Source: a virus. Taken from it: a stretch of DNA of 56,349 bases. The notes beneath the pieces are model-generated. The model was not told the origin of the DNA and searched no databases. It was given only the letters and a program-made list of their open reading frames with translations. Shown here one piece after another: positions 1,770 through 27,865 of the stretch. Location of the stretch: UHGV virus genome UHGV-0011358; one strand, written 5' to 3'. The translations under genes and the position numbers were made by a program. Every line of letters starts with the position of its first letter. Positions within the stretch are counted from its first letter, which is position 1.

Positions 1770-2900
1770 ATGTCACAAAGAAAGATAAGCGATGAGCAAT
1801 TGATCGCTGAATATAACAACGGTTTAACGTACAAGCAGATCGCTGAAAAATATGGTATGTCAAAACGCAACGTCGAGCGGCTGGGCGCAAAGCTGGCGAA
1901 ACGCGGTTTATTATCAACGCGCCGCGCCCCTGGTTTTGGCGTCAATGGCGAGTCGTTACTGGTCGATAAGAACGGCAATGTGATCATGCGCTGGATTAAA
2001 ACAGCCCGTGACCGCGACGAAATGGAACAGCTAATGGAAGCAGCCCGCGACGCTTTCACGGATGAAATACCACGCGCGGAGGCTGTGCCAGTGCCTGAAA
2101 TTGATTTTCAAAAAAGCCTAGCCCTTTATCCGGTGTTTGATCTGCATATCGGGGCGCTTGCTCATAAAGCTGAATGCGGCGAGAGCTACGACACTGGGAT
2201 CGCTGAGCGCGTGTTAAATGACTTCTTTGACTACGCCGTGGGCGCTGCGCCGATGTCTGAAAAAGCCGTCTTACTTCTCGGTGGCGACCTGATTCACACT
2301 GACGGATTGTTACCAGTGACGCCATCAAGCAATCACGTTCTTGATTGCGATTCGCGCTATGCAAAACTTGTTTATGTAGCGATCCGGGCAGTACGGCGGG
2401 CAGTCGGGAAGATGTTGCTAAATCATAAGGATATTGAAATCCAGGTGTTATCAGGCAATCACGATCAGTCTGGTATGATTTGGCTACGTGCGGCGCTGGC
2501 GGCTTTTTACGAAGATGAACCGCGCGTGACGGTTGATGTGTCACCTGCTATCGTCCACCACACGCAGTACGGTAAAACATTTCTTGCTTACCACCACGGG
2601 CACACTATCAAAAAACCGGAAAATTTATTGGCTGCTTGCGTATCTGACTGGCGCGATGATTTCGGGAAGTCGAAATATGTTTACGTCCATGTCGGACATT
2701 TGCACCATAAATCAGTAACAGAATCATCTATAGGCATAGTTGAACACCACGGCACGTTAGCGGGCAAAGACGCTTATTCAACTAATGGAGGATGGAGATC
2801 GCAACGTTGCGCTGCGGTTATCCTTTACAGTCCTGATTATGGCGAAATTGGTCGCTTTGTATATAGGCCTGAAATGGTGGGGTGTCATGATGTGGGATGA
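1770..2900 (+). CDS. HTH domain fused to calcineurin-like metallophosphoesterase
   Basis: N-terminal HTH (LTYKQIAEKYGMSKRNVERL); phosphoesterase motifs DLHIG, GGDLIHTDG, GNHD, HHGH, GHLHH in canonical order. Confidence 0.55.
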   Translation: MSQRKISDEQLIAEYNNGLTYKQIAEKYGMSKRNVERLGAKLAKRGLLSTRRAPGFGVNGESLLVDKNGNVIMRWIKTARDRDEMEQLMEAARDAFTDEIPRAEAVPVPEIDFQKSLALYPVFDLHIGALAHKAECGESYDTGIAERVLNDFFDYAVGAAPMSEKAVLLLGGDLIHTDGLLPVTPSSNHVLDCDSRYAKLVYVAIRAVRRAVGKMLLNHKDIEIQVLSGNHDQSGMIWLRAALAAFYEDEPRVTVDVSPAIVHHTQYGKTFLAYHHGHTIKKPENLLAACVSDWRDDFGKSKYVYVHVGHLHHKSVTESSIGIVEHHGTLAGKDAYSTNGGWRSQRCAAVILYSPDYGEIGRFVYRPEMVGCHDVG

Positions 2901-3393
2901 TTTGTTTACATATAGCGACGGCGTTCTATATTGGTCTTGTAACCGTGCAAATAACAAAATAAAAGCAGGTAGCGTGGCTGGATGTAAACATTATCGCGGA
3001 TATTGGACTGTACGCGTTAATGGTATTTGTTGCACATGGCGTCACCGCATTATCTGGGAAATGTTTAACGGCCCTATTCCTGATGGAATGGAAATAGATC
3101 ACATAAATCATGTACCTGGTGACGATAGAATCGAAAACTTAAGGATGGTGACAAGGAAGGAGAATAACAGAAACAAAACAATGCCATCAAGTAATACTAG
3201 CGGATGCGTTGGCGTTACGTGGAACAAGAAAACCAATAAATGGCGTGCGCAAATAGGTATAAGGGGGTCTGATGGGAAAAAGAAAACAATATACGTTTAT
3301 TACGGTGACTCATTTGATGATGCCGTAAAAGCAAGAAAAGAAGCTGAAAGAATGTATAACTTTCATAGCAATCACGGTATTTCTTTACCCTGA
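2887..3393 (+). CDS. HNH homing endonuclease (HNH plus AP2-like domain)
   Basis: IDHINHVPGDDRIENLRMVTRKEN HNH motif and C-terminal AP2-like segment; paralog of three other ORFs in the window. Confidence 0.75.
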   Translation: MMWDDLFTYSDGVLYWSCNRANNKIKAGSVAGCKHYRGYWTVRVNGICCTWRHRIIWEMFNGPIPDGMEIDHINHVPGDDRIENLRMVTRKENNRNKTMPSSNTSGCVGVTWNKKTNKWRAQIGIRGSDGKKKTIYVYYGDSFDDAVKARKEAERMYNFHSNHGISLP

Positions 3394-3427
3394 ATTTTCC
3401 ATTTTGTAAACCGGAGGTAATAACATA

Positions 3428-4843
3428 ATGGTAACTGAACAAATAAACTCACTACGGCAGGAACGTGAAGCGTCAGTTATCGGCGGGCTGCTGTTAGGCG
3501 GCCTAACTCCTAACGCGCAAGATGTTCTCGCCACACTTGATCCTGAAGTGTTCACGATCCCGCTTTATAAACGTGCGTTTGAAGTTATCCGGGCGCAAGC
3601 CAGAAACAGAAATCTTATCGACGCCTTGCTGGTTGGTGATGAGATTGGTAATGAAAATTTCGTACCGCTAATGCAAACGGCGCGATCGTGCCCGTCTGCC
3701 GCAAACCTGAAAGGATACGCACAGCTACTACGTGAAGAGCACCAGCGGCGGCAGATGTTGGAACTCATCGACGATATGCGCTACAAGCTGGAAACGGGGA
3801 CGCTTGAAGTCGTCAAAGAGACGATGAAAGATTTTGATTCCCGGTACTCAAAATTAAAGGTAACGAAAGATAAGATCATTCCGGTTCTGTTGCGCGATGC
3901 GGTACAGGAATATACGGATGTTTTAAGCAAGCGCATGGAATGCGGTGTCAATTCTGACAACATCAAAACAGGTATAGAACCACTCGACGAAATGTTGGGC
4001 GGCATTAACGCTACTGATTTGGTACTTCTCGCCGGACGCCCTGGGTCTGGTAAATCTGCGTTGGCGCTGACAATTGCCCGCGCAGCCGCTGAACGCCCTT
4101 ACCCTGGCAGTAAAGAACAGCGGGTTGGCGTTTTGCTCTTCACGCTTGAAATGTCACTCGATCAGATGACTGAGCGGGCCATTGCTGGCGCTGGTAATTT
4201 ATCAACTGACTGCCTGCGCAATCCGGTAAAACTTGATGATGAGGGTTGGGCGCATGTAGGCCAGGGGATGAGCGCACTTGCTAATCTTGAGGTGTGGATC
4301 GTTGACGCGTCGCAGTTGACGGTTGAGGAAATACGCGCAACAACGGAACGCATGAAGCAGGAACACCCGAACCTGGGTATGGTAATGATTGACTACATCG
4401 GTCTAATGAAGCTGGCGAAGGCCGAACGTCACGATCTCGCTGTAGGGCAATTGTCATGGTCGTTGAAGATGATGGCGAAAGAATTGCGCGTACCAGTGTT
4501 GGCGCTGGCGCAGTTGTCACGCCGCGTTGAGGAACGACCGAATAAGCGTCCTAACAATTCAGATCTTCGTGATTCCGGGAACCTTGAGCAAGATGCTGAC
4601 AGGATCATCATGGTGTACCGCGATGGTTACTACGATGAGCAGTCTGTTGCCCGCGAATATATGGAAATCATTGTATCGAAAAACCGTCACGGGAAAACGG
4701 GGACTGTCTACCAGCGGTTTGACGATAACGGCAACATCATACCATGCGACCAGGGCAGGGCCGCCGCCGCGTGCATTCAATCTATGAATCACCGCACAAG
4801 CCGATTTAACCAACGAAACAACCAGGATAACGCATCTTATTAA
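3428..4843 (+). CDS. DnaB-family replicative helicase
   Basis: 471 aa; Walker A GRPGSGKSALAL and DnaB-like C-terminal motifs (QLSRRVEER, DSGNLEQDAD). Confidence 0.85.
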   Translation: MVTEQINSLRQEREASVIGGLLLGGLTPNAQDVLATLDPEVFTIPLYKRAFEVIRAQARNRNLIDALLVGDEIGNENFVPLMQTARSCPSAANLKGYAQLLREEHQRRQMLELIDDMRYKLETGTLEVVKETMKDFDSRYSKLKVTKDKIIPVLLRDAVQEYTDVLSKRMECGVNSDNIKTGIEPLDEMLGGINATDLVLLAGRPGSGKSALALTIARAAAERPYPGSKEQRVGVLLFTLEMSLDQMTERAIAGAGNLSTDCLRNPVKLDDEGWAHVGQGMSALANLEVWIVDASQLTVEEIRATTERMKQEHPNLGMVMIDYIGLMKLAKAERHDLAVGQLSWSLKMMAKELRVPVLALAQLSRRVEERPNKRPNNSDLRDSGNLEQDADRIIMVYRDGYYDEQSVAREYMEIIVSKNRHGKTGTVYQRFDDNGNIIPCDQGRAAAACIQSMNHRTSRFNQRNNQDNASY

Positions 4844-12745: not shown

Positions 12746-12922
12746 CTCGATGACTCCATTTTGTTAATTAACGGAATAATTCTACCATTTTATGATCTGT
12801 GTTGCATTTTCTGCTTACACAAAATGTATTTGTTGATTTATATCAATATACGAAGTGTTGTTTTGTCGGATATTCAAGACACCGGATGAACCGGACGAGC
12901 TAACAAGAACGAGGATTAAAAA

Positions 12923-13171
12923 ATGAAAAACATGTTCAAAGTGGTTTTATTCTCTGCGGCTGTAGCTCTTACTGGTTGCGCTGTTGACAAAGAGACCGCA
13001 TTGCATAACCTGCCGAATAGCGGAGTAATTCCACAAGATGTTGTCTATGATGGTGAAGGTCATCTTGTCTATGACACTGAAAAACTGCCTTATACTGGTC
13101 AATGGTGTCATGAACTCGATCACAACATGCGCCGCATCGGTAGCCCTTCTAACTGTGTAGCTAACTACTAA
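12923..13171 (+). CDS. small lipoprotein (moron; Cor-like candidate)
   Basis: 82 aa; signal peptide with lipobox LTGC; opposite strand to flanking tail genes; own terminator. Confidence 0.65.
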   Translation: MKNMFKVVLFSAAVALTGCAVDKETALHNLPNSGVIPQDVVYDGEGHLVYDTEKLPYTGQWCHELDHNMRRIGSPSNCVANY

Positions 13172-13178
13172 AAGAAAA

Positions 13179-13200
13179 CCCCGCGCGAAGCGGGGTTTTT
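13179..13200 (+). terminator. rho-independent terminator (bidirectional)
   Basis: CCCCGC-GCGAA-GCGGGG hairpin followed by TTTTT. Confidence 0.6.
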
Positions 13201-13202
13201 GT

Positions 13203-21762: not shown

Positions 21763-21932
21763 GATTCCCCCTATAAGTTACATATTGCATACATCTTTAC
21801 GCGCTTCTACGCGAAAAATGAGAAATTCATCACAAGAATTATAACCAGTTTACAAAATGGCTTCACATAAGGCGTGACAAGATGTATATAGTAAGCAAGA
21901 AGAAAAAGCAGTACCGACAAAGGGGGGACAAC

Positions 21933-22088
21933 ATGGAACGCTATATGGTTGTGATGCTGAACAAAGCATTCGAACAGGTGGAAGTTGCGATTGTGAAGGG
22001 CTTTGATGATGCATTCAAATACGGTCAATTCATGATGAATGCAAAAGAAGATGAATACCGTGATTTCTTCCTGAAAGTGGTCAGCTAA
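21933..22088 (+). CDS. hypothetical small protein (moron island C)
   Basis: 51 aa; strong G-rich RBS. Confidence 0.4.
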   Translation: MERYMVVMLNKAFEQVEVAIVKGFDDAFKYGQFMMNAKEDEYRDFFLKVVS

Positions 22089-22106
22089 TGGATTGTGGGG
22101 TGTGTT

Positions 22107-22361
22107 ATGAAATTGGTGGCGATTGGTAAAAACCTGAAAGCACAGAAAAACGCACAGGACCGGATCATCAAAAAGGGCAAGGCTTTATTAAATGCTTTCC
22201 TGAAAAAAGAGGCCAACCCCAAAAAATTACGCGATGGCTACGGTTATAAATTTGACATCAACCCCGATTGGCGGTTATTCAGCGAAGATTTAAAGATGTG
22301 GTTAATTATTGACCACCTGGAATATAACAGGCACTGTGGGGTGAAAGGCGCTCACAAGTGA
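22107..22361 (+). CDS. hypothetical protein (moron island C)
   Basis: 84 aa basic ORF. Confidence 0.4.
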   Translation: MKLVAIGKNLKAQKNAQDRIIKKGKALLNAFLKKEANPKKLRDGYGYKFDINPDWRLFSEDLKMWLIIDHLEYNRHCGVKGAHK

Positions 22362-22392
22362 CACGGATTTGAATGTTGCGGAGGAAAACAAA

Positions 22393-22563
22393 ATGAAAAA
22401 TCCGGCAAATAAAAGCAACGTAAAACGCATAGCATGGGTGCTAAAATATATGGATAGTAAAGGGGATACATATACATGCCCATTTTTTAGGTATACTGAC
22501 GCGGTATTTGCCAGAAGTGTACACGGAGGGAAAATTGAAAGAGGATATACAAGATTTGAGTAA
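22393..22563 (+). CDS. hypothetical small protein (moron island C)
   Basis: 56 aa; GGAGGA RBS. Confidence 0.4.
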   Translation: MKNPANKSNVKRIAWVLKYMDSKGDTYTCPFFRYTDAVFARSVHGGKIERGYTRFE

Positions 22564-22601
22564 ATTTATTCACGAAATCAATAACATGATGAAGGTTTAT
22601 A

Positions 22602-22781
22602 ATGATTATTCACGAGACTGAAGAATGTAGAAGGATTGATCTTAGTGTTGAAGATGATGGAAGATTATGGATCGTTAGCGACTGCGAGATGATTGTAATA
22701 GACAAAAAGCAAGCTGACGAACTGATAAGCGCATTACAGCTTTATGCAAACGGCGAATTTAAAAATGATGAAATTGAATAA
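22602..22781 (+). CDS. hypothetical small protein (moron island C)
   Basis: 59 aa ORF not in the track; terminator follows. Confidence 0.35.
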   Translation: MIIHETEECRRIDLSVEDDGRLWIVSDCEMIVIDKKQADELISALQLYANGEFKNDEIE

Positions 22782-22787
22782 AAATAA

Positions 22788-22810
22788 CCCCGGCATTGCG
22801 CCGGGGTTTT
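22788..22810. terminator. bidirectional rho-independent terminator
   Basis: CCCCGGC-ATTGC-GCCGGGG hairpin flanked by T-runs on both strands. Confidence 0.6.
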
Positions 22811-22812
22811 GA

Positions 22813-25800
22813 TTATTTGCGGCGCGGTTGCAGCATTCCGCCCGGTCTGGATGATTCGCGGTGTATCAGGCCCATGCAGATCTTTTCCATATCCTGCTGT
22901 AGTTTTTTGGCGTCCTCATCACTCCATCCATTTTGTGGGTAAACGCTAATCGGTGCGTTTATACTAACGTTACCACCACCCGCACCACCAATGTCGCGAT
23001 TTGGTATTACCCTGCCGTTGTCACCAGGAATCATATACTGTTCACCGTTTCGAGATTGGAAGATCTCTGGCTTACCGTGTTCCCCTACGCGATACAGGCT
23101 ACCACCGTTAACCGCACCGCCGTTATAACGAGCGCCAGCCAGTCCAAGCGTTTTGGCGGCAGCGACGCCAGTAGTAAGCCCAGTAAGTCCAGTGGCCCCA
23201 GCGCCGCCCATCGTGGCAACGTTTGCCAGGTATGCAGGAGTAGCCCACGCTGATGATAACGCTGCCGCCTCTGCCAGTGCTTTGGTTGTTGCCATAGTTC
23301 TTGCTGTATCACCAATCAATTGCTGCTTGACCCACTCAGTACCCATTTGAACAATCGTACCAATCACGGAGGAAAGGATTGTATTGCCAATGTTAGCGAT
23401 CGCCTGTTGCCAATTTTGAGTACCGTTAATCAGGCCGACAAGCGCGTTAGTTGCGGATCCGCTCATTGCATCAACAGCATCGCCTAACAGTTGGTTGGTC
23501 AATGACTGCGCCTTATACCTCTCCCACTGAAGTGATAGCATTTCCCTCTCATGCGCTTTTTCTTGCTCCCTCATATATTGCTCTGTAGCGCCTAAATCTG
23601 TGAGCATCTGCTTGCGAACCGCCCATTCATTCATCGCCTGCTGAATTGGGTCTAGTTGCCCGCGTAGTTGTAGCTCTTTGTTTACCAGATTATCCCAGCT
23701 AGCCTGACGTTTGCGTTGTTCCTCGGTTCCAATTAATTCTTTCCATGCCTTATTATATTGTTCCGCGCTTATTTTGCCGCTTTTTAATGCTGCATTTAGC
23801 GCATCCTGATCCTCTTTTAATTTCCGTTGCGCGGCGGCTTCTACATTGTATTTATCTGCAACATTCTGGCCCCGTTTCTCAAGCTCTTTGCGCAGGCGTT
23901 CAGCCTCTTTTAGATGTTTTTTCTCCTCGCTTTCGCCAGTTTTTTTCCCATGACTGGCCTTTCTTTCAGCTTCGGCGCGTTTCTGCTCGGTGTCGTATGC
24001 TTTGGTCATTGTAGCCATGTATTTTTCATACGCTTCCCCGGTCAGGTTTGCTTTCTCAGCCTCACGCTTAAACCCATCAATCGCCTTTTCCCTGCTGGCT
24101 GTTTTGGAGTCGAGTTTTGCCAGCTCCAGGCGGCGGTTTGCCAGATTCATTAATTCTTGCTGATCTGCGTTAAGTGCTGCTGAAGCGTGTTGCGTTGCTG
24201 CTGCTGCGCGTTCTGCTTCTGTGGTGATTCTTCCGTATGCATCCGCTACCAACCCCAATGAAGTGGCAACGGTCTTCATTAGCGGATCTGTATCCTGCAT
24301 AAGCAGAATATATTTGCGCTGCATTTGATTAAGGCGGTCGAGAATATCCTCACGCTGCGCCTCTTCCCTGGTCAGGCGGGCTGTGATTTCCTGATTAGCT
24401 TTCGATAGGTTGGCGTAAGCGCGTGACCCCTCCTCTGCTTTCTCCAGTGCCTGTTTATTCAGTTCCAGCGCCTGCGTGTCCTGGTCAATCTGTTTGTTGA
24501 GACTGGCAACGTCTTCCTCTAACTGACCCATTGATATTTGTAGTTTATCTGCACCAGCCAGCTTAGCCGCCTTACTCATTCGTTCCAGTGATTCGGTACT
24601 AACGTCCACTGAATCGGCAAGGTTGCGGTTTGCCTCTGCCGTTTGATCTACGTGATCTACATATGCTGTCAACCCGTAAACAGCAAGCATTAACGCGCCA
24701 GGGATACCACCAATCGCACCCAGAGTAGCGCTAAACGCTGTTTTTAGTAGCCCTGCATTAGCCGCCGCCGCAGTGTGGGCCGCAGCAAGGCGCTGCTCTG
24801 CCGCAGTAAGGGCGTTTGATGCCGCTGTGTTCTGTGCTTTGGCTACAGCCAATTCTTTCAGTGTCTGAACTTCGAATTTTGTTCCGGCATTTGCCGCAGC
24901 ATAAGCCTGCGCCTCTCTCAACCTTGCCGCCGCCGCCGCTACTGATTGCCGTGCTGATACCACCTGAGCGTTAGCTAGCGCCAATTCACTCTGAGCGGCC
25001 TGCCGTGCCGCTGCCGTTTGTGCCCTGGTCGCCTGAGCGTTAGTTAATACCTCTGCTGTTGCAGCTACGAATTTATTTACCACTCTGCCACCCATCACAG
25101 TGGCAATGCCAATAAATGCAGTAGCTATTTCGTTAAGGTTTTCTGACAGGGTTACAACTGCCGAATTAAAAGCACCAATCCCGCCCATAATTGACGAATT
25201 GCTGCCGAAAAATTTAGCTGCGTTGTTGCCTGCAACAGTGAAAGCCTCCTGCATAGTTGGGGTGAGTTTAGAAAACTCAGCATCAACCTCCGCTTTCATT
25301 TCCTTAAGGGCTTTAATGATAGCTTCACGGGTGATTTTCCCTTCTGCTGCCATCTTGCGCATTTCCGCTGACGATACGCCCAGTGATTTAGCCAAACCCT
25401 CTGACAGCCTGGTGGCGTTTTCTGTAACGGAGTTAAATTCATCGCCATTCAAAACACCTTTGGCGAGGGATTGACCCAACTGACGGATCCCGCCTTCTGC
25501 TTCAGCGGCAGAAGCGCCAGAAATGCGGAATGTTTTGTTAATGGTTTCAACCATATCACCAAGTGCTTTCGTCGATAAACCAGCGTCGCGCGTCGAGCGC
25601 TCTAATTTACCGTAAAGATCTGCTGTAGCATCAAGATCGCTTCGTGAATTTTGCGCGATCTGAAATACACGCTGATTAACGTCTGCCAGTGATTCACCAG
25701 CACGAACGCTATTGATTAGCCTGTTATTCACCTCCTGCCAGGCGTTTGCATACTCAATGATTTTTTTTGCTGCCATTGCAGCACCCAGGGCACTGGCAAT

Positions 25801-25968
25801 CGAGGATAGCTTTGACAGTGACTTACTTGCCTGAGTGGCGGCACTATCCACGCGCTCCAAATCCTTTTCCATTTTGCCAGTTGCGCGATCTACCTCGCGC
25901 TGAACAGTCAGAAGCTGACCCGTTTTTGCATCAACCTCGTAATAAATTGTGCCTAAATTTGTTGACAT
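22813..25968 (-). CDS. H: tail tape measure protein
   Basis: 1051 aa, coiled-coil rich, Gly-rich C-terminus; sits upstream of M-L-K-I-J. Confidence 0.9.
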   Translation of the reverse strand: MSTNLGTIYYEVDAKTGQLLTVQREVDRATGKMEKDLERVDSAATQASKSLSKLSSIASALGAAMAAKKIIEYANAWQEVNNRLINSVRAGESLADVNQRVFQIAQNSRSDLDATADLYGKLERSTRDAGLSTKALGDMVETINKTFRISGASAAEAEGGIRQLGQSLAKGVLNGDEFNSVTENATRLSEGLAKSLGVSSAEMRKMAAEGKITREAIIKALKEMKAEVDAEFSKLTPTMQEAFTVAGNNAAKFFGSNSSIMGGIGAFNSAVVTLSENLNEIATAFIGIATVMGGRVVNKFVAATAEVLTNAQATRAQTAAARQAAQSELALANAQVVSARQSVAAAAARLREAQAYAAANAGTKFEVQTLKELAVAKAQNTAASNALTAAEQRLAAAHTAAAANAGLLKTAFSATLGAIGGIPGALMLAVYGLTAYVDHVDQTAEANRNLADSVDVSTESLERMSKAAKLAGADKLQISMGQLEEDVASLNKQIDQDTQALELNKQALEKAEEGSRAYANLSKANQEITARLTREEAQREDILDRLNQMQRKYILLMQDTDPLMKTVATSLGLVADAYGRITTEAERAAAATQHASAALNADQQELMNLANRRLELAKLDSKTASREKAIDGFKREAEKANLTGEAYEKYMATMTKAYDTEQKRAEAERKASHGKKTGESEEKKHLKEAERLRKELEKRGQNVADKYNVEAAAQRKLKEDQDALNAALKSGKISAEQYNKAWKELIGTEEQRKRQASWDNLVNKELQLRGQLDPIQQAMNEWAVRKQMLTDLGATEQYMREQEKAHEREMLSLQWERYKAQSLTNQLLGDAVDAMSGSATNALVGLINGTQNWQQAIANIGNTILSSVIGTIVQMGTEWVKQQLIGDTARTMATTKALAEAAALSSAWATPAYLANVATMGGAGATGLTGLTTGVAAAKTLGLAGARYNGGAVNGGSLYRVGEHGKPEIFQSRNGEQYMIPGDNGRVIPNRDIGGAGGGNVSINAPISVYPQNGWSDEDAKKLQQDMEKICMGLIHRESSRPGGMLQPRRK

Positions 25969-26125
25969 GATTTAACCTCATACAAAATGTGATCTATGCC
26001 TCTATTTTATACAAAATGGATTTACTTCAGTGAACACATTTTGTATAAAGAAGCCAAAGGAAAGGGATTGAGCGAATGGATTCAGAAGACCGGATGAACC
26101 GGAGGAAGCAAAAGAGGATAAGAAA

Positions 26126-26215
26126 ATGAAAAACGTAAACTACCACCCCAACGAACATGAGCGCTATGCAGACTTTATTGAAGAAATGCTGAAGGCACTT
26201 AAAAACAAAAAATAA
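26126..26215 (+). CDS. very small ORF (moron island D)
   Basis: 29 aa; preceded by a leader homologous to the one at 12868-12922. Confidence 0.3.
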   Translation: MKNVNYHPNEHERYADFIEEMLKALKNKK

Positions 26216-26346
26216 TTGGGTTGGTTAAATGGACACAATCAAAACGGTTATAGATGTATATATTACAGCATGGTTAGCATTTAATGTGATGGCTGTACTG
26301 GTGCTGGCAATGACAACCGAAGATAAACGTAACTGAGAGGTGTATC

Positions 26347-26649
26347 ATGGAACTGGTAATTTGCTTCATCGGATTTATCGCAACTATGGTTGTGGCTCAG
26401 AAAAAACATCTGAATATGCTCCTGGCATTCTTTGGTGCGCTGATTTGCTGGCCTGCTGTATTGATTTACGCACTGTGCGTTAACAAAAGGATGTTCAAAC
26501 ACTACGTTGATGCAGTGACTTTTGTAAGCATGGAGTTCCCGAACGCAACTGACGTACAGAAAGCACAGGTCGCAACTTACATTTACGATAACGTGTACGA
26601 TATTCACGACTTGGATGAGGCAAGATGCAGATTTGCAGCATACAAATAA
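26347..26649 (+). CDS. small integral membrane protein (moron island D)
   Basis: 100 aa with two hydrophobic helices; opposite strand to tail genes; own terminator. Confidence 0.55.
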   Translation: MELVICFIGFIATMVVAQKKHLNMLLAFFGALICWPAVLIYALCVNKRMFKHYVDAVTFVSMEFPNATDVQKAQVATYIYDNVYDIHDLDEARCRFAAYK

Positions 26650-26657
26650 AGATAAAG

Positions 26658-26680
26658 GCCCGGCTAATCCCGGGCTTTTT
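26658..26680 (+). terminator. rho-independent terminator
   Basis: GCCCGG-loop-CCGGGC hairpin followed by TTTTT. Confidence 0.55.
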
Positions 26681-27353
26681 CTTGCTCGCTATTTTCCATT
26701 CTTTTTAGTATCTCCATAGCCTCCCTCATTCCATCGTCATAAGCCTTTTTATCCAGTAATACATCTGGTCGTTTTTGTTTGTTTCTTGCTTCTGGCGGCG
26801 TTTTAGCACGCACAGCGGCTCTATATCCGGTCATTGTCATATTCCACGCTTCTGATTCTGATAACCCCAGGTGAGCAACGGCAGAATAAACAAACTCCAG
26901 TATGTCGAACGTTGGTTTGTATTCACCTTCCCGTCTCTCGCTTGCAACCTCTTCAGGGCCGTCACCGATTAAACCGTGGTACATGCAGTGTTGCGCCAGT
27001 GTAATAACATCATCAACAGGCATTATTCCTGATTTTAGCCTTAGTTTACCTGAGGGAGTGAACCAGCATTCGCCTAATAACGAGCCTGTTTCGTCGTCTG
27101 AGCAACATTTCAGGATGTGTATAGACGTTTGCACTATCTCACCATAACACCGCGCCATAATGCGATTGCGGAGGTCTGGATCTGTAGGTAATCGTGAAGG
27201 GTATTTGCTGCCGTGGATAAGTGCGAAATATTCGACAAGCTCACTATCGTTGCCGATTTTAGCCATCGCAGCAAAGCAAGGATTAAATTCATAGCGCTTA
27301 CCGTTCACCACAGCCGCAAATTGTCCTGTACGAACATGGATCATAGTATTCAC
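26664..27353 (-). CDS. putative tail assembly chaperone (G/GT position)
   Basis: 229 aa ORF between major tail protein and tape measure; assignment by position only. Confidence 0.45.
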   Translation of the reverse strand: MNTMIHVRTGQFAAVVNGKRYEFNPCFAAMAKIGNDSELVEYFALIHGSKYPSRLPTDPDLRNRIMARCYGEIVQTSIHILKCCSDDETGSLLGECWFTPSGKLRLKSGIMPVDDVITLAQHCMYHGLIGDGPEEVASERREGEYKPTFDILEFVYSAVAHLGLSESEAWNMTMTGYRAAVRAKTPPEARNKQKRPDVLLDKKAYDDGMREAMEILKRMENSEQEKARD

Positions 27354-27388: not shown

Positions 27389-27865
27389 TTATGCAGCAAC
27401 CGGATCGGTTACAGTTACCTGGCCCGCGCTTTCGCACTCAATGGACCAGGTTGTCACATCATCGTGCGGCGCTTCTTCTTCGAAAGACGTGCAAAGGAAT
27501 GGACCCTCAGTCACATCGGTGGGGGTGACGATTTTTAGCCACACGTATGGCTGATTTCCGGTAGCAGTGCCCGGTGACATTACATGACGCTTTAGTTCTT
27601 TCTGGTTGTGTAGAGCATCACTACGTGATACGCCGTCGCCGGAGAAAGAAACAGATTTGTAAGTGACCAGGGATTCTTTGGTATAGTCGGCGGATTTATC
27701 AGCGGTGGCGTCTGCGGTTTCCCATTCTACGGAAAGCGTTTTGCCGCGCATCATGCCTAACGCTTTATATGCTTCTTTACTAGGTTTCGCATTAGGGCAA
27801 GCGATAGCAAAGAATACAGCAACGTCACGGCCTGTAAATGAGCCATTTTCGCAAGTCTGAGACAT
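27389..27865 (-). CDS. putative major tail protein
   Basis: 158 aa; position upstream of chaperone and tape measure. Confidence 0.55.
   Translation of the reverse strand: MSQTCENGSFTGRDVAVFFAIACPNAKPSKEAYKALGMMRGKTLSVEWETADATADKSADYTKESLVTYKSVSFSGDGVSRSDALHNQKELKRHVMSPGTATGNQPYVWLKIVTPTDVTEGPFLCTSFEEEAPHDDVTTWSIECESAGQVTVTDPVAA

Follow-up and report, generated by a model that had tools for sequence, protein, structure and literature searches.

The closest described counterpart of the locus analysed here, a small interval in the tail module of UHGV virus genome UHGV-0011358 (56,349 nucleotides (nt), referred to below as the window), is gene 15 of phage HK97, which lies between the chaperone and tape measure protein (TMP) genes and encodes a YebO-like superinfection exclusion protein of the inner membrane (PMC3594210). 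Other described systems share some of its features, namely, phi80 taiEcA, an antisense prophage defence gene inside the Q-dependent late operon (PMC11364771), and P-FimU of the Pseudomonas F10-like phages, whose gene is located between those for the tail tube and the chaperone (PMC12952977). Lpp010 (mEp010 gp116) has been shown experimentally to exclude mEp010, mEp044, mEp554 and lambda (PMC11893012). In the window, positions 25969-26663 constitute a gap between two minus-strand tail genes, those for TMP and a DUF6246 protein, and this gap, hereinafter island D, holds a plus-strand unit of three small open reading frames (ORFs) of 29, 35 and 100 amino acids (aa), denoted ORF29, ORF35 and ORF100. 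Island D very probably represents a prophage accessory cassette located in a hot spot of cargo exchange between the DUF6246 and tape-measure genes. Neither morons between the chaperone and TMP genes nor antisense defence genes within late operons are new in themselves; as far as sequence comparison goes, the novelty lies in the orphan three-gene cargo and in a slot for cargo exchange that is universal in a common group of gut coliphages and carries a portable module of promoter, leader and micro-ORF.

Like HK97 gene 15, island D occupies this siphophage slot, encodes a small (here, predicted) inner-membrane protein, carries its own terminator and constitutes extra DNA compared with relatives. 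However, gp15 is a single 62-aa, one-helix protein encoded on the same strand as the tail genes, whereas island D consists of three opposite-strand genes behind a conserved promoter, leader and micro-ORF and displays no sequence similarity to gp15. In orientation, it is closer to phi80 taiEcA, which likewise lies opposite to and within the late operon, so that late read-through is antisense, a noncontiguous-operon architecture. By contrast, taiEcA is situated upstream of the module for packaging and Tai blocks tail assembly, and no neighbouring counter-defence gene is evident at island D. P-FimU is similarly a prophage-expressed envelope protein encoded in the tail cluster, in the very slot in which a distant ORF100 homologue was found (see below), but it belongs to phages of another host and mimics a minor pilin. 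Finally, the window itself contains a gene for an 82-aa lipoprotein (12923..13171, plus strand; lipobox LTGC), antisense between the tail fibre and J genes in an island at 12746-13202, and its product is 95% identical to mEp010_116, that is, Lpp010. This Lpp010-type island resembles island D in being antisense within the tail module of the same phage, in having its own terminator and in its homologous leader (CCGGATGAACCGG ... GAGGAT ... ATGAAAAAC, with the TACACAAAATG motif upstream); in an alignment read by eye, the island D leader is ~80% identical over ~55 nt to the leader of the lipoprotein gene (12875-12930). The two islands differ in slot, and their core promoters are not collinear. Moreover, the Lpp010 product carries a lipobox and is a lipoprotein of the outer envelope; ORF35 and ORF100, by contrast, contain neither a signal peptide nor a match to the lipobox pattern [LVI][ASTVI][GAS]C (in the LVIC of ORF100, residues 3-6, position -1 is I).

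The nearest records to the window are mEp554, mEp044, mEp515, mEp010, mEp013 and MagusPhagus, and by this measure the window represents an mEp021-like prophage from the mEpimmI group, that is, the prophage of a temperate siphophage of Escherichia coli. The mEpimmI group is Nus-dependent and non-lambdoid, and among collected E. coli phages from the human gut its members have been reported to match lambdoid phages in frequency; the tape-measure/DUF6246 interval is not discussed in that work (PMC11893012). In mEp021, the archetype of the group, the slot is occupied by gp63, annotated as 'hypothetical protein'.

The description of the locus as a 'moron island', first proposed in a sequence-only reading of this DNA, agrees with insertion, composition, terminator and cargo exchange alike. 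We scanned viral contigs for relatives of the DUF6246 protein and distinguished mEpimmI-type loci (DUF6246 identity of at least 68%) from distant ones (28-41%). In all 45 mEpimmI-type contigs, the tape-measure gene is preceded by a gap of 640-1275 bp with antisense ORFs, whereas in 18 of the 26 distant DUF6246 phages its start lies between -4 and +77 nt of the DUF6246 stop codon. A scan of species-representative genomes for DUF6246 yielded two Castellaniella loci only, and in the Castellaniella prophage the DUF6246 gene directly overlaps that for TMP. Given that TMP abuts DUF6246 in most of the distant relatives, the island represents 'more DNA' at an ancestrally tight junction. Its GC content is 38-40%, compared with 47-57% in the tape-measure gene, and the GC and AT skews change sign, the pattern that foreign DNA with plus-strand genes should show. 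The terminator anticipated at the end of the cassette is indeed present as a strong predicted hairpin, a bidirectional intrinsic terminator (26654..26683; AAAGGCCCGG-CTAATC-CCGGGCTTTT followed by TCTT, stem 26654-63/26670-79) that was also called by a simple scan. It begins 5 nt past the ORF100 stop codon, encloses the DUF6246 stop codon (26664-66) in its loop and folds well below shuffled expectation on the plus strand (-18.6 kcal/mol, z = -3.3), where it is followed by TTTTTCTT, and on the minus strand (-18.7 kcal/mol, z = -3.4). To judge from its extra DNA, differing composition and own terminator, island D is a moron in the sense of Juhala and Hendrix.

The cargo differs between otherwise collinear phages, whereas the promoter, leader, ORF29 and the Shine-Dalgarno sequence that follows it are constant. 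At least eight cargo types occupy the slot, including ORF35 with ORF100 (35+100 aa, in about one fifth of the contigs), two types of secreted protein, one of 116/119 aa and the other of 137/138 aa, a VasI/TagO-like lipoprotein (203/219 aa; PF11319, E = 2e-16) that is often paired with a protein of 106 or 124 aa, the combination of a 59-aa membrane protein and a lipoprotein of 124 aa, a 60-aa protein with a 245-aa lipoprotein, and proteins of 165 aa and 117 aa. Signal peptides, lipoboxes or transmembrane helices are found in most cargoes, the lipobox being present in cargoes other than ORF35 and ORF100, and one slot lipoprotein shows weak, sub-threshold similarity to BamE/OsmE. ORF29 accompanies most cargo types and is the sole island gene in one metagenomic contig (L013), and ORF35 is located 5' of ORF100 in the mEpimmI loci examined, except L019. 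The VasI/TagO-like lipoprotein, of a type associated with type VI secretion and not expected among the morons of a phage tail operon, was observed at 2761-3420 of locus L006, in L015 and L017, and in ~17 of the 45 viral contigs in L047-L093.

The 29-aa and 100-aa ORFs reported antisense between the flanking tail genes are both present where they had been placed; the unit is, however, not one of two genes, as the third ORF, of 35 aa and with one helix, had been overlooked. All three are preceded by Shine-Dalgarno sequences. ORF29 (26126..26215, plus strand; ribosome-binding site AAGAGGA at 26112-18) is the constant first gene of the slot and encodes a hydrophilic micro-protein (MKNVNYHPNEHERYADFIEEMLKALKNKK). 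ORF35 (26229..26336, plus strand) has one predicted transmembrane helix, with a maximum Kyte-Doolittle window of 2.6, and ORF100 (26347..26649, plus strand; ribosome-binding site GAGAGGTG at 26335-42) is predicted to span the membrane with two helices near its N-terminus and to end in a helical domain of 55 aa. The two-helix membrane character originally ascribed to the 100-aa protein was reproduced by topology prediction, with hydrophobic helices at approximately residues 2-17 and 24-45 separated by QKKHLN; the family shares the motif WP(A/V/G)VLIYALCVNK, and the AlphaFold2 (AF2) model is all-helical. Codon-position variation, counted over 6-11 related loci, amounted to 5, 4 and 20 variable columns at the first, second and third positions of ORF29 (11 loci), 9, 3 and 17 in ORF35, and 21, 10 and 44 in ORF100. 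Because the variation falls mostly on third codon positions, all three are, by this criterion, real genes under purifying selection as proteins in their plus-strand frames.

Homology searches with the 100-aa protein recovered close relatives but no named family or fold. Homologues of ORF100 form 7 clusters (identity of at least 81%) among 5.8 billion, and a profile search recovered 3 representatives among 1.84 billion. The family was found only within this tail module, and the only distant homologue is a 122-aa protein (P0008, E = 2e-19) encoded on metagenomic contig L013 (Logan SRR29277969). ORF100 is thus, as far as these searches reach, a narrow orphan family.

Upstream of ORF29, the palindrome-flanked, promoter-like TTTACT-N17-TATAAA was found at the place indicated in the sequence-only reading (26021..26049, plus strand; -35 TTTACT at 26021-26, 17-nt spacer, -10 TATAAA at 26044-49), with a predicted start at ~26056. 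The core lies within an inverted repeat (26006..26049) with 21-nt arms, 26006-26026 and 26029-26049, that are 86% complementary and include the conserved TTTATACAAAATG and CATTTTGTATAAA; a third copy of ATACAAAATG is located at 25980-89. Directly 5' of the -35, at ~-48 to -37, there is a TATACAAAATGG element (26008..26019, plus strand), preceded by a CRP-like site, TGTGA-TCTATG-CCTCT (25988..26003, plus strand), in which the left half is perfect, the right half matches at 2 of 5 positions and the centre is at ~-60.5 from the predicted start. The putative 5' leader (26056..26125, plus strand) is purine-rich and contains a small hairpin, CCGGATGAACCGG (26090-26102); its overall fold is weak (-8.3 kcal/mol, z = -1.8). 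We aligned the first ~260 nt of the island from 12 loci and compared 43 promoter copies (29 distinct) identified by pattern search. The constant part comprises, in order, the tape-measure ribosome-binding site, TGTGAT, CTCTATTTTATACAAAATGG, a variable 17-nt spacer with the -35, CATTTTGTATAAAGA, the purine-rich leader, ORF29 and the G-rich Shine-Dalgarno sequence of the next gene. The TGTGAT, CTCTATTTTATACAAAATGG and CATTTTGTATAAAGA blocks are invariant across the relatives, as is the -10, whereas the spacer varies and the -35 appears as TTCACT, TTTACT or TTCATT. TGTGAT, which was no part of the search pattern, is invariant and located exactly 14 nt upstream of TATACAAAATGG in the 29 distinct copies, the copy in another slot included. 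Although the hexamers by themselves are no better than chance, this invariance and the recurrence of the module in other slots are the chief grounds for considering the promoter-like region functional. An exact-pattern scan for the promoter in species-representative genomes gave no match, and an Rfam scan of 25700-26900 returned only terminator-like matches below threshold.

The recurrence is best seen on L013 (480-2140), where the module is present twice. In the tape-measure/DUF6246 slot, the promoter and an ORF29 homologue are followed directly by the terminator, without cargo, whereas in the DUF6246/tail tube slot the promoter apparently drives P0008, with its own terminator after it. Within the window, TATACAAAATG occurs 16 times with at most one mismatch, against 1.8 expected, and none of 100 shuffles reached 16. 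A TATACAAAATGG-type element is found at the same position relative to the -35 and -10 at 54674 (minus strand), 21849 (plus strand) and 41539 (minus strand), the corresponding TATACAAAATGG-[-35]-N17-[-10] sites being TTGACT-N17-TATATT upstream of an N-like gene, a candidate early promoter (54674-54620, minus strand), TTCACA-N17-TATATA, the putative promoter of a second antisense island, island C (21849-21890, plus strand), and a third site at 41539-41498 (minus strand).

Class I CRP-dependent promoters carry TGTGA-N6-TCACA centred near -61.5 (or -71.5), with a weak -35 downstream. The spacing of the CRP-like sites of island D (~-60.5) and island C (~-70.5), both counted from predicted starts, fits this arrangement; in island C, the site reads TGAGA-N6-TCACA, its half-sites being conserved and the N6 variable in 10 relatives. 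The TGTGA element at island D may have a CRP-like role or may, alternatively, belong to a phage regulator. An operator for a dimeric protein, considered as an explanation of the island D palindrome, was not favoured: the 29-bp spacing of the half-sites is out of helical phase and the other motif-bearing promoters have no second arm.

Taken as a whole, the locus is reasonably likely to be a moron cassette with an inner-membrane exclusion cargo. In a lysogen, host sigma-70 RNA polymerase would start near 26056 from TTTACT-N17-TATAAA, perhaps assisted by the TATACAAAATGG element and possibly by CRP bound at ~-60.5, transcribe ORF29-ORF35-ORF100 and stop at the hairpin; plus-strand transcription of the cassette is a prediction. 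ORF35 and ORF100 would then insert into the inner membrane, where they would most likely stop DNA delivery by superinfecting phages, as gp15 of HK97 does from the equivalent slot. The late genes of the mEpimmI group have been reported to depend on Q-like antitermination (PMC11893012), and during lytic growth the Q-antiterminated late transcription would pass the bidirectional terminator, cross the cassette in antisense and damp its expression. Superinfection exclusion as the function of the ORF35/ORF100 cargo is offered tentatively, as a possibility rather than a probability, by analogy with gp15 in the same slot and the proven exclusion lipoprotein in a related island, and in view of the mostly envelope-directed cargoes and the confinement of ORF100 to the tail module.

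Several observations weigh against this explanation. The topology of ORF100 is ambiguous, with basic residues on both flanks of the second transmembrane helix, and its AF2 model is of only moderate confidence (pLDDT 70), matching nothing in PDB or BFVD at E of 0.001 or below. A sequence search of PDB with ORF100 found no relative, BLASTP against HK97 gp15 gave no alignment at E of 100 or below, and Pfam, NCBIfam, PHROG and PADLOC searches with the three island proteins returned nothing usable, the weak matches being phrog_15053 (E = 0.007) and Aa_trans (E = 0.025). The 106-aa and 60-aa cargo proteins of relatives look cytoplasmic. No linkage was detected between the cargo type and the allele of the TMP N-terminus, so that nothing marks TMP as the target, although the lack of such a tie fits frequent exchange of the cassette. 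The promoter hexamers match at only 9 of 12 positions, a simple sigma-70 scan makes no call, the -10 ending in A, and, because of the palindrome, the minus strand of the window reads an equally good TTCACT-N17-TATAAA towards the tape-measure gene.

A broader extension of the favoured reading, which we regard as doubtful in its entirety, is that island D is a standardized 'expression dock', in which a portable promoter-leader-micro-ORF module, present at several antisense sites of the tail operon, would have its envelope-targeted defence cargo swapped by recombination. The module might respond to CRP and also be bound by a phage factor at TATACAAAATGG, the ORF29 peptide would have a function of its own, and ORF35/ORF100 would represent a new system of inner-membrane exclusion, without sequence relationship to gp15, SieA or Imm.

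The same cargo inventory can be read differently, with the cassette as a lysogenic-conversion module whose membrane proteins alter the envelope physiology of the host (for example, by acting on a transporter or sensor kinase, on a stress response, or on how well the cell withstands colicins or attack by the type VI secretion system) rather than exclude phages. The other cargoes of the slot, VasI/TagO-like and weakly BamE/OsmE-like, are not classic exclusion proteins, the cargo type is unlinked to the TMP allele, and many small membrane proteins of E. coli are established regulators of larger ones (PMC3594210). Nevertheless, we consider this unlikely, given that the other antisense tail island of the group, with a related leader, encodes a proven exclusion lipoprotein (PMC11893012), that HK97 gp15, the classic occupant of the slot, is an exclusion protein, and that the ORF100 family is confined to the tail module.

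The palindrome raises a separate question, namely, whether its conservation reflects mainly a function on the late (minus) strand, either as a restart promoter, TTCACT-N17-TATAAA (26034-26006, start ~25999), or as a hairpin in the tape-measure leader, in which case it would say little about plus-strand expression. The minus strand indeed reads a promoter with the same 9/12 match, at 31 nt upstream of the TMP start codon, and the minus-strand RNA of the inverted repeat folds well (-14.1 kcal/mol, z = -4.0); furthermore, the module in L013 is also directly upstream of a late gene start, and on the late strand the palindrome is preceded by the bidirectional terminator. Yet the relatives retain the plus-strand -35 as TTCACT, TTTACT or TTCATT, whereas that of the minus strand degenerates to TTCGTT or GTCGTT, and the invariance of the stems leaves no covariation in favour of an RNA structure. 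A restart promoter would be needless under Q-like antitermination of the late genes (PMC11893012), whereas the real plus-strand genes downstream require a promoter. A predominantly late-strand role is, accordingly, quite improbable, and we retain the plus-strand promoter of the moron cassette.

More remote still is an abortive-infection or toxin-type module, in which ORF35/ORF100 would depolarize or permeabilize the membrane upon infection and kill the cell. Both proteins are tiny and hydrophobic, in the size range of type I toxins and holins, weak BFVD fold neighbours of ORF100 include holins (E of at least 2.8) and the nearby island C encodes a ParE-like toxin domain; the fold matches, however, are not significant, no similarity to PADLOC defence models was detected, there is no antitoxin-like or antisense-RNA arrangement, and constitutive co-expression from one promoter is expected. 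We regard this module as very improbable. A class II holin was considered specifically, as the size and the two helices fit, and set aside in view of the antisense position in a tail operon and the non-significant holin fold matches; for holins and type I toxins alike, both context and similarity are absent.

That the plus-strand ORFs arose by chance, with the minus-strand mEp554_92 and mEp554_93 as the real genes, or with no genes at all, carries a negligible probability, because, despite the coding sequences (CDSs) that PHANOTATE placed on the late strand across this interval in the database entries of mEp554 and mEp044, the variation that falls on third positions of the plus-strand frames falls on first positions of the minus-strand frame (44, 10 and 21 variable columns for the ORF at 26281..26607, favoured by PHANOTATE in mEp554), which refutes it, and good ribosome-binding sites, the PGAP annotation of the plus-strand 100-aa gene and the skew reversal all agree with plus-strand coding. 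The same codon-position data leave the late-strand CDSs unsupported, and these are probably mis-annotations. The late-strand calls lie at 4145-4330 and 4421-4696 of locus L001 (mEp554_93, mEp554_92) and at 2644-2823 of L007; ORF29 is unannotated in both the mEp554 and mEp044 records, and the mEp554 record also lacks ORF35 and ORF100.

The cassette overturns no expectation, but the slot provides a compact supply of candidate exclusion proteins that lend themselves to direct testing. It is present in every mEpimmI member examined, yet it is unannotated or mis-annotated, as in mEp021 (gp63) and mEp554. Should its cargoes act in exclusion or defence, the slot would bring together, behind one conserved promoter, at least eight factors that act on the envelope, a compact set that is easily cloned and compared, and would also supply a new orphan family of inner-membrane exclusion proteins. 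The ORF29 micro-ORF and the recurring TATACAAAATGG and TGTGA elements offer handles on the regulation of prophage genes in the mEpimmI group.

Both flanking genes lie outside the cassette. The TMP gene on the left (22813..25968, minus strand; ribosome-binding site GAGGT at 25979-25975) matches PF20155 TMP_3 (E = 1.7e-55) and phrog_1107 (E = 5e-222). The DUF6246 gene on the right (26664..27353, minus strand; 229 aa) lies downstream of the tail tube gene (27389..27865), in the slot of the tail assembly chaperone. In Pfam and PHROG searches, it matched DUF6246 (PF19759, E = 2.5e-53) and phrog_791 alone, both of which are families without an assigned function, and a search of PDB for a relative with a solved structure found none. 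Its position between the tail tube and TMP genes fits a tail assembly chaperone, and the label 'tail chaperone' is one by position only.

Island C (21763-22812, plus strand) separates the minor tail gene from the end of the tape-measure gene and contains four small ORFs and a terminator (22786-22808). One of these ORFs (22107..22361) encodes a ParE-like toxin domain (PF24732, E = 7e-12) and is preceded by a 51-aa ORF, with which it may form a toxin-antitoxin system. Perfect TGTGA-N6-TCACA palindromes are present at 41543-58, 46471-86 and 49840-55, in intergenic regions of the early/middle operon, where ~0.1 would be expected in 56 kb, and each adjoins a TATACAAAATG-type motif; copies with mismatches are found at 20166-81 and 55458-73. 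These palindromes are either CRP sites, of which they match the core consensus, or operators of a phage regulator, for which the phage repressor was considered; no operator definitions are given for the mEpimmI group in PMC11893012.

The N-like gene (54206..54496) encodes an arginine-rich motif, NARERRRIKRENERK. Its leader (54540-54600, minus strand) contains TGCTCTTTAACAA, which we take to be boxA-like, as it matches the boxA of E. coli rrn operons, followed by a GC-rich hairpin, and the two together presumably constitute nutR1. Finally, the cI-type repressor of the window (54786-55432, minus strand) is divided between two ORFs in different frames, one for the helix-turn-helix part (55175..55432, PF01381) and one for the S24 peptidase (54786..55232, PF00717). 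The segment measures 701 nt, compared with 702 nt for the region of the single cI CDS in mEp010 and mEp515, which implies a 1-nt indel, that is, either a frameshifted repressor or a sequencing error.

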